Shown one piece after another: positions 56,096 to 64,000 of a stretch of DNA of 64,000 nucleotides (position 1 is the first letter of the stretch; the number at the start of each line of letters is the position of its first letter). The translations under genes were made by a program, and so were the position numbers. The notes under the pieces were generated by a model. The model was not told the DNA's origin, ran no database searches, and saw only the letters and a list, made by a program, of their open reading frames with translations. The stretch spans positions 18,943 through 82,942 of the forward strand of contig CAZFIU010000003.1 in assembly GCA_964519455.1 (NCBI GenBank). Direction: 5' to 3'. The DNA comes from an uncultured Syntrophobacterales bacterium (GTDB taxonomy: Bacteria; Desulfobacterota; Binatia; UBA9968; JAJDTQ01).

Positions 56096-57013
56096 ATGTC
56101 ATCCGGCATTCCGGAAGTCGATTTCGAACCGTTCCTGAACGGGGACGCGGCGGCGCGCCGCCGGGTCGCGGAAGAGATCCGCGCGGCCTGCGGCGAGTAC
56201 GGCTTTCTCAATGTCGTCAACCTGCCTCTGCCCAACGGGTTGGTCCAGCGCGTTTCCGCCAAGGCCAAGAAGTTCTTCGCCTTGCCCGCGGAGGTCAAGG
56301 ACGCCATCGGCCGGTCCGACCTCGACGTCATCTCGGGCTACGTCGGCATCGCCGTCGAACACCTCGACACGCAGCAGCCGGGGGACCTCAAGGAATCCTT
56401 CAGCCTGAACCAGGCCAGCCTGAAGCTGCTGGACCGCTGGCACATCCCGGTGGCCGGCTTTCGCGAGACGGTCCTGGAACTCCACGAGGCCGCCGCGCAC
56501 GCGTGCGCGGCGCTGGTGCGCGCCATGGCGCTGTCCCTGGACGCGCCCGAGGATTTCTTCGAGGACAAGCACGCGCCCCACGCCAGCACCGTGCGCTTTT
56601 TCCACTACCCGCCGCTGACGCGTCCGCCCGGAGACGGGCAACTGCGCGCGGGAAGCCACACGGACTACGGCACCGTCACGCTGGTCTTCCAGGACGAGGT
56701 GGAGGGTCTGGAGGCGCTGGTGGACGGCCGGTGGGTGACGGTCCCCGTGGTGCCCGGTACCGTCACGGTCAACGTGGCGGACCTGCTGTCACGCTGGAGC
56801 AACGGCATCTACCGTTCGCCCAAGCACCGGGTGGCCCTGCCGAGCGCCAACGCGGACCGGTCCCGGTACTCCAACGTATTCTTCTACAACCCCAACAGCG
56901 CGGCCACGGTCCGGTGCCTCGACTCCTGCTGCGACGCCGGCCGGCCTGCCCGGTATCCACCCATTGCCGCCGGGGAGTTCCTCAGACAGCGGCGCGCCGC
57001 ACAGTATCAGTAA
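56096..57013 (+). CDS. 2OG-Fe(II) oxygenase (isopenicillin-N-synthase-like non-haem dioxygenase)
   Basis: H-x-D...H facial triad region (GSHTDYGTVTLVFQD ... SPKHRV) and DIOX_N-like N-terminus. Confidence 0.8.
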   Translation: MSSGIPEVDFEPFLNGDAAARRRVAEEIRAACGEYGFLNVVNLPLPNGLVQRVSAKAKKFFALPAEVKDAIGRSDLDVISGYVGIAVEHLDTQQPGDLKESFSLNQASLKLLDRWHIPVAGFRETVLELHEAAAHACAALVRAMALSLDAPEDFFEDKHAPHASTVRFFHYPPLTRPPGDGQLRAGSHTDYGTVTLVFQDEVEGLEALVDGRWVTVPVVPGTVTVNVADLLSRWSNGIYRSPKHRVALPSANADRSRYSNVFFYNPNSAATVRCLDSCCDAGRPARYPPIAAGEFLRQRRAAQYQ

Positions 57014-57376
57014 GACGCTCCGCTCTCAAGGACGAAGATGAGGTCGCTCGGTACCGAGGGTTGGAAGCATGAGCGACTGATAGTCACGGATCGGCGTCGA
57101 TCACCACTCCGTCACGCGACCGACTGTCCGGGAGTGACACGTGGCCGGTAGGCCGGCGCCAGGCGGGATTTCTGCGAACGTTCCTGGAACGGCACCGGGA
57201 ACAACTGTTGGGGAAGCACTCAGTGGATGCGCACCAGGGGTCCGGGGTGCAGCACGTATCCCGTTGACTCCACCGGTCCTTTCGCCGCAAGGTCGACCAG
57301 CAACTCCAGGGTTTCCGGGGCCACGCCCAGGTCCATCATGAAGCGGGGTCCGGCCACCTGGCTGCAGGACAAACGC

Positions 57377-57402
57377 TACACGGCCAATTTTGAAACCCTC
57401 CC
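57377..57402 (+). repeat. 26-nt conserved motif TACACGGCCAATTTTGAAACCCTCCC (copy B), ~125 bp upstream of the sterol-cluster ORF
   Basis: 24/26 identical to 31393-31418. Followed by TGGAAC and a CGGAG/CTCCG hairpin. Confidence 0.4.
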
Positions 57403-62929: not shown

Positions 62930-62989
62930 AGCCGCTCGCCCGCGGCGGACCGGTTCGCCTGCGACGTCGGCGGTCTCTTCCGCCGGCCT

Positions 62990-64000
62990 TCAGCTTCGTT
63001 TTGTCTTGTCGAGCGCCAACAGAAGCGGCGGGAACAAGAGAAAGTCCGCGGCCAGCGCAATGACGATCGTCATTCCGACCAGCACCCCGAGCGTCTGATT
63101 CGTGTCCAGGCCGGACGCGCCGAAGACGAAGAATGTGGCCGCGAATATCAAGGTGGTGCTGAACAGCGCCCGGCCGACCGTCATGAAAGTGGGCGCGATG
63201 GCCTCGGCGGGCGAGGTGCCCTCGGCGCGCGATCTCAGGTATCTGGACAGGAGATGGATGGTATCGTCCACGACGATGGCGAAGGCTATGACCGTGACGA
63301 TGGATGCCGCGATGGTAACGGTTCCCACGGCGTAACCCCAGGCCCCCATGGCGACGATTGCCGGGACGAAATTGGGGACCAGGCTCAGAAGCCCGAAAAG
63401 AAGGCTTCTGAAGGAGAAAATCAAGAGCAGGGAGACGATAAACATCGCAATGAAGGTGCCGATCAACATATTCACGATGTTTCTCATCACCGAGTAGGCG
63501 CCGACGATGGTGACCCCGGTGGCCCCGCTGGCCATTTGTGGCGCATTCTCCCGCAGCCATCCCGAAGCGCGCCGGTCCAGCTCGATCTGCTCCTGGACCG
63601 ACATCTCCTCGACCACCACGGTCATGCGAGAGGCCGAGCGGTCGAAGTTGATGAGGTTGTTCAGGTCCCGGCCCACCGGCAGGGACAGCTCGTATAGAAG
63701 CAGATATTGCGCCGCAAGGTCGGGGTTCTTCGGCACCGCATAGGATCCGTCGGCGTCGTTGTGCAGTTTCTGATTGAGCCGCTTCATGATATCGGCGATG
63801 GACGTGACATGGGAGACTTCAGGCTGTTCGCGAAGCCACAGAGCAAACGACTCCACTTGACGCAGGTACTCGGTGTCCTTGATTCCCCCCTCACGCCCGG
63901 AATCCAGTGAATACTCGAAGGTATCCAGCCCCGCGAAATTCCTGTTTATGAAATCGCCGGATCGGCGCAACTCGTAGCTCTCGTCGAGCAGCTTGGCATT
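62990..64000 (-). CDS. RND-superfamily (MMPL/HpnN/BstA-like) transporter, C-terminal portion (5' end beyond the window)
   Basis: Periplasmic domain followed by 5-6 TM helices typical of an RND C-terminal half. The frame stays open to position 64000. It is convergent with the P450 gene. Confidence 0.75.
   Translation of the reverse strand, partial: NAKLLDESYELRRSGDFINRNFAGLDTFEYSLDSGREGGIKDTEYLRQVESFALWLREQPEVSHVTSIADIMKRLNQKLHNDADGSYAVPKNPDLAAQYLLLYELSLPVGRDLNNLINFDRSASRMTVVVEEMSVQEQIELDRRASGWLRENAPQMASGATGVTIVGAYSVMRNIVNMLIGTFIAMFIVSLLLIFSFRSLLFGLLSLVPNFVPAIVAMGAWGYAVGTVTIAASIVTVIAFAIVVDDTIHLLSRYLRSRAEGTSPAEAIAPTFMTVGRALFSTTLIFAATFFVFGASGLDTNQTLGVLVGMTIVIALAADFLLFPPLLLALDKTKRS

Follow-up and report, generated by a model that had tools for sequence, protein, structure and literature searches.

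The final 6.5 kb of a 64,000-nucleotide stretch (here termed the window) of contig CAZFIU010000003.1 from an uncultured Syntrophobacterales bacterium (assembly GCA_964519455.1, positions 18,943 to 82,942, forward strand) encode three proteins: a squalene epoxidase fused to an oxidosqualene cyclase (OSC), a cytochrome P450 fused to a GPP34/GOLPH3-like domain, and a convergent transporter of the resistance-nodulation-division (RND) superfamily. The locus raises the question of what a P450 bearing a GPP34 domain does beside a triterpene cyclase, and of whether two such long fusions are genuine. The epoxidase-cyclase gene (57527-60871, + strand; 1,114 amino acids, aa) ends 36 bp before the start of the GPP34-P450 gene (60908-62929, +; 673 aa), the distance that had also been given in the first-pass annotation of this DNA. 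The stop codons of the P450 and transporter genes (the latter at 62990-64000, −, and open to the window end) lie 60 bp apart.

The three genes probably constitute a steroid module of the type carried by sponge-associated bacteria, whose products would make, modify, and move a steroid, as judged from sequence comparison and gene linkage. The module represents a variant form of the steroid cluster already described from sponge symbionts, with a GPP34-P450 and an RND pump instead of an ERG24-CYP51 core, which is absent from the window. Domains were called by a Pfam profile search of the translated open reading frames (ORFs) of the window. All genes named in the first-pass annotation were recovered in place in the ORF list, translations, and Pfam matches, and its core reading, a sterol cluster with genuine epoxidase-cyclase and GPP34-P450 fusions, is supported. 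Each of the three refuting conditions named in it was checked, and all three outcomes favored it: the fusion is intact in other assemblies, the cyclase is OSC-like, and the GPP34 profile matches over its full length. Neither fusion is novel, both having been published (PMC10070321; PMC11706023). The epoxidase-cyclase fusion, the cluster as such, and the GPP34-P450 architecture are thus already documented, and that part of the analysis is confirmatory. New here are the systematic occurrence of GPP34-P450 genes within steroid gene neighborhoods and the predicted loss of the phosphatidylinositol 4-phosphate (PI4P) pocket from their GPP34 domain.

The two fusion enzymes

The epoxidase-cyclase protein runs through four Pfam domains with no internal stop, in line with the uninterrupted squalene monooxygenase-triterpene cyclase ORF proposed earlier. 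Its squalene-epoxidase domain, a flavin adenine dinucleotide (FAD) monooxygenase (aa 9 to 392; 57551-58702, +), matches FAD_binding_3 (aa 9 to 308, 81.8 bits) and SE (aa 154 to 392, 88.2 bits; cutoff, 20.1). The motif GAGPVG is present at aa 15 and the GD motif GDAAGHYHPLTAVGMT (GDAAG...GMT) at aa 283. The best solved relative of this half is human squalene monooxygenase (SQLE; 6C6N), at 103 bits, and other flavin monooxygenases score 41 bits or less.

The cyclase domain (aa 480 to 1105; 58964-60841, +) is predicted to be of the lanosterol type and comprises two alpha-alpha toroid domains, SQHop_cyclase_N (aa 480 to 772, 166.6 bits) and SQHop_cyclase_C (aa 783 to 1105, 181.5 bits). It is OSC-like rather than squalene-hopene cyclase-like, both by comparison with solved structures (human lanosterol synthase 1W6K, 434.5 bits, versus squalene-hopene cyclase 1GSZ, 167.4 bits) and by NCBIfam profiles (osq_cycl, 727.7 bits, versus hopene_cyclase, 262.3 bits). 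The osq_cycl score is under the trusted cutoff of 851, and that of the NCBIfam profile squalene_cyclas (505.7 bits) is over its cutoff of 322.7. A regular-expression search found the DCTAE motif at aa 852 to 856 (60080-60094, +) and no DxDDTA motif, as had been claimed, and D852 aligns to the catalytic Asp of the human enzyme (D455). The five QW repeats reported previously are an approximation, since four are strict (aa 489, 962, 1010, and 1068) and the fifth, near aa 885, is degenerate.

Human D455, C456, C533, H232, and Y503, which are the catalytic Asp, its Cys partners, and the His/Tyr deprotonation pair, correspond to D852, C853, C924, H632, and Y894, and all five, like V850 (human V453), are invariant in 28 fused homologues. 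The window cyclase therefore has the fold family, the DCTAE acid, and the equivalents of C456/C533, H232, Y503, and V453 in common with the human (1W6K) and bacterial (Methylococcus and Gemmata) lanosterol synthases. It differs from them in its covalent fusion to an upstream epoxidase, in its score below the osq_cycl trusted cutoff, and in the product triad, where human T381/C449/V453 is represented by A781/H846/V850 (A781 and H846 in place of T381 and C/Q449). In bacterial OSCs, residue 453 alone tracks the product, with Val associated with lanosterol and Ile with cycloartenol (Wei et al. 2016, PMC4919349). Under this rule, V850 predicts lanosterol, possibly accompanied by parkeol, as the cyclase product.

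The linker between the two domains (aa 393 to 479; 58703-58963, +) combines a basic amphipathic helix with a downstream stretch rich in Pro, Ala, and Asp, and its invariant positions across the 28 homologues include P397, R418, W421, S454, D473, A474, and P476. No hydrophobic transmembrane segment was found in the linker and no transmembrane helix in either fusion protein of the module, and both halves of the epoxidase-cyclase are therefore interpreted as monotopic or peripheral membrane enzymes.

The GPP34-P450 has the architecture named GPP34_L, and Pfam confirmed the N-terminal GPP34/GOLPH3-like domain and the P450 domain that had been assigned from the sequence. The GPP34 domain (aa 9 to 211; 60932-61540, +) gave a strong match across the whole profile (positions 1 to 200 of 201; 87.4 bits; E value, 1.8e-24), and the P450 domain (aa 233 to 656; 61604-62875, +) scored 79.1 bits on p450. 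Relationship to the eukaryotic proteins required a profile: a single-sequence search of the PDB with the GPP34 domain returned Vps74 at an E value of just 0.12, whereas the profile search reached GOLPH3 structure 3KN1 at 3.7e-6 and GOLPH3 and Vps74 at ~4e-6, and hhalign against GOLPH3 gave 95.6% probability. The PI4P pocket of GOLPH3 is formed by W81, R90, R171, and R174 (Wood et al. 2009, PMC2806290). These residues align to W31, I38, E99, and I102, with the Trp kept and the three basic residues gone. W31 is invariant and E99 nearly invariant in the GPP34-P450 family. By this alignment, the basic PI4P pocket seen in GOLPH3 is missing from the window domain.

The protein begins directly with the GPP34 domain, has neither a signal peptide nor a transmembrane helix, and carries a proline-rich hinge (PLTKPIP, aa 223) directly after that domain. 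Eukaryotic microsomal P450s have an N-terminal membrane anchor before a proline-rich hinge. The window protein is similar to microsomal sterol P450s (CYP51, CYP46A1, and CYP21A2) in fold class (TM-score, about 0.8) and in the position of the hinge behind an N-terminal membrane-directing element. Unlike these enzymes, with which its sequence identity is 14 to 20%, it would be anchored by a 220-aa GPP34 domain rather than by a transmembrane helix, and its I helix is without the acid-alcohol pair of the A/G-G-x-D/E-T pattern, which serves O2 activation.

Within the P450 domain, the ExxR motif is ECMR (aa 535) and the heme-Cys loop is YGLDTHTCAG (aa 607 to 616), with no variation at C614, E535, or R538 across the family. 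The best PDB sequence match scored 59.8 bits, and its I-helix motif, AGHETT, aligns to F477-Q478-S479-L480-Y481-L482. The sequence FQS(L/I)Y thus stands in place of AGxET (aa 477 to 481; window 62336-62350), and S479, Y481, and D484 are invariant family-wide. A Foldseek search of the PDB with the predicted structure returned eukaryote-like and BM3-type P450s at a TM-score of about 0.8, which are generic matches, and no entry with the two-domain arrangement. The nearest unfused P450 relatives are 26 to 32% identical, and the only named one, a Herpetosiphon "CYP120," offers no functional lead. The protein search found 412 homologues of the GPP34-P450, and both domains are present in almost all of the best 120. 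An NCBI entry (P0121) is 100% identical, and relatives reach up to 87% identity.

Steroid gene neighborhoods and the RND transporter

The neighborhoods of GPP34-P450 genes were surveyed in 64 metagenome loci chosen solely for the presence of a GPP34-P450, with the identities of the neighbors checked by Pfam. A sterol methyltransferase (SMT) with Sterol_MT_C above the cutoff was present in 33 of the 64 loci and a Rieske oxygenase with a KshA_C (3-ketosteroid 9α-hydroxylase) domain in 30. MMPL genes were found in 31, amine-oxidase-type flavoproteins in 18, and AcrB-type RND genes in 11. At least one steroid-type or RND neighbor occurred in 60 of the 64 loci and lay within 1 kb in 51. This association and the loss of the PI4P-pocket residues make the GPP34-P450 most likely a steroid-tailoring enzyme.

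Approached from the cyclase, a GPP34-P450 lies within 10 kb in ~20 of 80 cyclase-centered loci. Of the 14 members of the subfamily that shares at least 58% identity with the window P450, 12 have an MMPL gene within 1 kb and 13 a cyclase in the locus. One locus (L081) has the gene order of the window, with the fused gene followed by the GPP34-P450 and a convergent MMPL gene. In L165 and L082/83 the same three genes are present but rearranged. Independent inspection of five neighborhoods showed an RND transporter adjoining the GPP34-P450 in every case, with an SMT or fused cyclase gene also beside it in four.

Several of these loci have features of their own. A compact, steroid-type arrangement in L093 (4065-11349) combines an amine-oxidase flavoprotein, a KshA_C Rieske oxygenase (5487-6641, −), a GPP34-P450, and a convergent MMPL gene. 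In L002 and L006 (e.g., L006 at ~4 to 7.5 kb), which belong to Binatia/Thermodesulfobacteriota, two GPP34-P450 paralogues, 27 to 48% identical to the window P450, lie in one steroid cluster. Such pairing suggests that the family comprises several distinct tailoring activities. Around the L082 and L165 modules, the small "hypothetical" genes proved not to be conserved, and an apparently conserved "hypothetical" gene in L163 (13498-14031) is a shadow of a KshA-like Rieske gene.

The transporter gene is represented in the window by its C-terminal 336 aa, a fragment scoring 65.5 bits on Pfam MMPL and 53 to 56% identical to RND genes beside GPP34-P450 genes in L053, L056, and L060. The full-length gene at the same position in L081 matches Pfam Sterol-sensing at 27.5 bits (cutoff, 22.3). 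Sterol-sensing scores are 30.5 bits in L005 and 47.7 bits for the MMPL neighbor in L093, which also has Patched sterol-sensing domain (SSD) matches. The best NCBIfam profile for the orthologue is HAE3 TIGR00921, with 169.4 bits under a cutoff of 351.9, and the best solved relatives are MmpL4/5 (~30 bits).

The convergent RND/MMPL transporter of the first-pass annotation is therefore present, but the likeness to BstA and HpnN drawn there holds at the level of superfamily and function and not of family membership. Like the BstA (Methylococcus sterol) and HpnN (hopanoid) transporters, the window gene belongs to the RND-superfamily inner-membrane lipid transporters that lie beside triterpenoid synthesis genes. 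Its orthologues carry a sterol-sensing/Patched-type bundle, but it is not an orthologue of either. The full-length L081 orthologue scored 17.8 bits on the BstA profile NF045600 (cutoff, 1400), 91.9 bits on the HpnN profile TIGR03480 (cutoff, 751.85), and 29.7 bits on NF052374 (cutoff, 1100), and the HpnN structure in the PDB gave 24 bits. Downstream of the module MMPL gene, L081 (14698-21745) encodes a second MMPL protein, a protein with BNR/PSII_BNR repeats, DUF1329, and DUF1302. Together these proteins may provide a route for lipid export across the envelope. The corresponding region of the organism analyzed here lies past the window end.

Proposed function and alternatives

The functional reading starts from observed domain identities, residue conservation, and gene linkage and extends them by prediction to four points: which product is made, what the P450 acts on, what the GPP34 domain does, and in which direction transport runs. 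In the first step, the FAD domain would epoxidize squalene and the cyclase domain would convert the resulting 2,3-oxidosqualene into a lanosterol-type protosterol, with the fused enzyme holding both active sites in a 1:1 ratio on the membrane surface. The cytoplasmic GPP34-P450 would then oxidize the steroid in an additional tailoring step distinct from the 14-demethylation of CYP51. Its GPP34 domain may dock the P450 on the bacterium's own membrane or hand over a lipid substrate. Membrane docking or substrate delivery is the most likely role for this domain because of its anchor-like position before the hinge and the loss of the PI4P pocket. In relatives, the P450 would share this step with methyltransferases of the side chain, with a KshA-like oxygenase of the ring or side chain, and with a flavoprotein. 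Finally, the convergent MMPL/HAE3 RND pump, of the SSD type, would carry the steroid out of the cytoplasmic membrane and on to the envelope or to the host.

Several observations weigh against this reading. The 64-kb window contains no CYP51, ERG24, SdmA/B, SMT, or squalene synthase gene, and neither the P450 nor the epoxidase has a ferredoxin or reductase partner encoded nearby. The transporter fragment shows MMPL only, as the N-terminal sterol-sensing bundle lies past the window end. RND genes are common, so that a neighboring SMT or KshA-like gene is more telling than an MMPL or AcrB neighbor alone. Confidence in the GOLPH3 alignment is high at W81 and R90 and moderate at R171 and R174. In the I helix, the acid-alcohol pair is replaced by L480-Y481, so that the usual monooxygenase reaction cannot be taken for granted; oxygen may be activated in an unusual way, or the chemistry may not be that of a monooxygenase. 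The AlphaFold model of the epoxidase-cyclase has a mean pLDDT of 60.7 and a pTM of 0.40 and was built from a shallow, near-identical alignment, which makes it too poor for judging the geometry of substrate channeling. That of the GPP34-P450 has a mean pLDDT of 86.4 and a pTM of 0.67.

The alternative that survives best is that the GPP34-P450 and its RND partner, joined in relatives by KshA-like Rieske and flavoprotein partners, act on sterols of host or dietary origin, through uptake, remodeling, or catabolism, rather than on the bacterium's own product, and that the cyclase gene lies next to them for regulatory or historical reasons. Sponges are sterol rich, KshA_C-type Rieske oxygenases are a steroid-degradation family, and sulfatases and MlaA/MlaC lipid-trafficking genes occur in some contexts. 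Moreover, a cyclase lies within 10 kb in just 4 of the 64 GPP34-P450-centered loci. However, the subfamily to which the window P450 belongs has a cyclase in nearly every locus (13 of the 14), and in the window the cyclase gene is directly upstream on the same strand. The commonest neighbors, the SMTs, are biosynthetic, and no KstD, Mce4, thiolase, or other steroid-catabolic genes were seen in the annotated loci. MMPL/HAE3 transporters are also typically exporters. Action on acquired sterols is consequently rather unlikely.

A role in host interaction has been proposed for the family in the literature. GPP34_L proteins (GPP34 plus P450) number 656, are reported exclusively from sponge symbionts, and have been interpreted as secreted PI4P-binding effectors that block phagosome maturation (Microbiome 2025;13:4, PMC11706023). 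The window protein is a typical member, with the same two-domain architecture and a length of ~670 aa. If it were such a eukaryote-mimicking effector, adjacency to sterol genes would be incidental. Expression in Aplysina aerophoba (PMC11706023) and restriction to sponge symbionts favor this explanation, and the GPP34 domain is a true family member with an invariant W31 (GOLPH3 W81). Nevertheless, the three basic PI4P contacts are replaced by I38, E99, and I102, the protein has no signal peptide, and a heme enzyme dependent on a redox chain would be an odd effector. The genomic context of the GPP34-P450 is steroid metabolism, with steroid-type genes or lipid transporters beside it in 60 of the 64 independently chosen loci. 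The effector study analyzed flanking genes for the short form only and mentions neither sterols nor the PI4P-pocket residues (PMC11706023). A secreted effector is thus quite improbable, and steroid tailoring appears considerably more likely than the published role. No published link between GPP34 and sterols in sponges was found, though literature beyond that searched may hold one.

Replacement of CYP51 by the GPP34-P450 as sterol 14α-demethylase, in clusters that, like the window, are without the ERG24-CYP51 pair, is very unlikely. In its favor, no CYP51 is encoded in the 64-kb window, and the weak PDB matches of the P450 include CYP51 structures in the upper part of the ranking (54 bits; Foldseek). 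Against this, the question raised earlier of whether the P450 is a CYP51 is answered in the negative by its scores of ≤54 bits to solved CYP51s, its 24 to 30% identity to cluster CYP51s, and the absence of any NCBIfam family reaching its cutoff. The I helix of the GPP34-P450 also departs from the canonical pattern. Furthermore, members of the same subfamily share their clusters with CYP51 and ERG24 genes (L043, L050, L060, and L086), and other clades co-occur with CYP51 as well, with both genes in one cluster in L007, L012, L023, L035, L047, and L048.

The steroid-module reading can be extended, tentatively, to the family as a whole. It is possible, although not the likelier case, that the GPP34-P450 is the signature enzyme of an unrecognized, mobile steroid-tailoring and export system of sponge symbionts, in which GPP34 has been repurposed from PI4P binding to membrane docking or steroid extraction. 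The partners proposed for it, with the same reservation, are SMT paralogues, Rieske oxygenases like KshA, flavoproteins of the amine-oxidase type, and RND transporters of the sterol-sensing type. If true, unconventional sponge sterols would be produced or remodeled by this system and passed to the envelope or the host, and the interpretation of the GPP34-P450 family as antiphagocytosis effectors would be overturned. Derivatives of 24-isopropyl- and 26-methyl-cholesterol are sponge sterols that serve as the oldest animal biomarkers, and any bacterial contribution to them is under active debate. A bacterial oxidative branch would then join the debate on the makers of these biomarker sterols. Knowledge of the steroid clusters in sponge symbionts does not extend to the accessory genes, and the GPP34-P450 and RND transporter are candidates for further sterol oxidation and export. 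For a family of at least 656 published GPP34-P450 proteins, now read as host-manipulation effectors, the location in steroid gene neighborhoods and the absence of the PI4P pocket offer a concrete alternative function.

Distribution, mobility, and surroundings of the module

Full-length fused homologues of the epoxidase-cyclase (1,116 to 1,181 aa; 69 to 81% identity) were found in at least 120 protein clusters. In a scan of one genome per species, relatives of the fused gene were present in 374 species-level genomes, including megabase-scale contigs and metagenome-assembled genome (MAG) records labeled as chromosomes. Taxon names and identities were taken from the best 80 of the 374, in which identity across about ten phyla is 66 to 78%. 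These 80 carriers, all MAGs, include Binatia, Nitrospirales, Acidimicrobiia, Alpha- and Gammaproteobacteria, Acidobacteriota, Gemmatimonadota, Rhodothermales, and Chloroflexota, among others. Many have names marking a sponge origin (Poriferihabitaceae, Porisulfidus, Spongia_Bin9, and Ircinia, Aplysina, and Rhopaloeides bins). Hundreds of independent assemblies carry the full-length fused gene intact, and sequence comparison therefore excludes the flaw that the first-pass annotation had named as possible, a missing stop or a frameshift confined to the present assembly. That the long ORFs are assembly artifacts, in which a lost stop or frameshift joined separate genes, is a negligible possibility, as the epoxidase-cyclase linker residues are conserved, GPP34 and P450 occur in one protein in >400 proteins, and the one split copy of the fused gene, in the NCBI version of a related contig (L082), is intact in the ENA version (L083).

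The split copy concerns a single Ircinia-symbiont contig, on which the gene is 237 + 888 aa in L082:5503-8898 and an intact 1,131 aa in L083:5503-8898. The difference is an assembly or annotation discrepancy and not biology.

The fused gene has precedents in two studies of sponge symbionts. Brown et al. (2023, PMC10070321) mention the fusion, having trimmed "fused SMO/OSC homologs" for a tree. It is implicit in Kelly et al. (2022, PMC9531527), who reported that 115 of 537 Ircinia MAGs carry ERG24-CYP51-LSS clusters, with purifying selection and horizontal gene transfer (HGT), and whose LSS alignment, at 3,765 positions, has a length that fits the fused gene. Clustering of flanking ORFs showed that the fused gene closes an SMT-SdmB-SdmA-ERG24-CYP51 operon in ~50 of 83 related loci, and the fused family is therefore embedded in sterol synthesis. 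The window module shares with the sponge-symbiont clusters of steroid genes (CSGs; PMC9531527) and the Aplysina-symbiont sterol clusters (PMC10070321) the same fused gene, at 66 to 78% identity, the ecological and taxonomic spread, and the evidence of HGT. It differs in that the published ERG24-CYP51-LSS core of the CSGs is flanked by SdmA/B and SMT, none of which occurs within the window. Instead, the window cyclase is coupled directly to the GPP34-P450 and RND transporter, genes unmentioned in either paper.

The identity of 66 to 78% across phyla and the published HGT analysis (PMC9531527) indicate that the module is passed horizontally between sponge symbionts belonging to many phyla. In L164, perfect 1,165-nucleotide inverted repeats (7369-8533 and 15029-16193) bracket exactly a GPP34-P450 (10001-12034) and an MMPL/SSD gene (12111-14510). 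An ORF in the repeat arm (7818-8510, −) resembles an IS5-type DDE transposase by eye. This arrangement suggests a composite-transposon-like cassette carrying the GPP34-P450 and MMPL genes. A DDE transposase also lies alongside the module in L165.

Upstream of the module, the 2-oxoglutarate (2OG)-Fe(II) oxygenase gene (56096-57013, +; 305 aa; Pfam DIOX_N and 2OG-FeII_Oxy) that had been placed ahead of the cluster is present, but membership in the cluster was not borne out. The product is a generic protein like IPNS, ACCO, and EFE (ethylene-forming enzyme), its gene is separated from the cyclase gene by 513 bp, and synteny is lacking in the nearest relatives. Its only homologues, at 33 to 34% identity, are 3 to 8 kb away in 3 of the 80 cyclase-centered loci, and none occurs in the GPP34-P450-centered loci. 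The oxygenase is rejected as a cluster member and probably lies outside the module. A promoter and terminator scan of 55.9 to 63.2 kb yielded nothing beyond shuffle expectation.

The module is situated at the edge of a variable region rich in defense and toxin-antitoxin genes, and the genes upstream of it in the window include PrpD, HigBA, Shedu, a UvrD-like helicase, and genes of general metabolism. Directly 5′ of the sterol module, an ORF with a HigB-like toxin domain and then an HTH_3 antitoxin-like ORF (54271-55219) form a type II toxin-antitoxin pair. Farther upstream is an ORF with the SduA_C domain of Shedu, an antiphage defense nuclease (49266-50849; 92 bits). A 1,097-aa UvrD-type helicase with an N-terminal extension of ~500 aa (43829-47122, +) is encoded back to back with a 1,035-aa ORF without a Pfam match (40720-43830, −), and the two (40720-47122) may constitute a defense gene pair. 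A DUF7690/DUF7687 protein (36129-37214; 271.7 bits) is located within a dip in GC content (0.53 versus ~0.66, at 36 to 38 kb), and the DNA around it is probably foreign. An AAA-ATPase_like/PDDEXK_9 gene is found at 25034-26581 (−).

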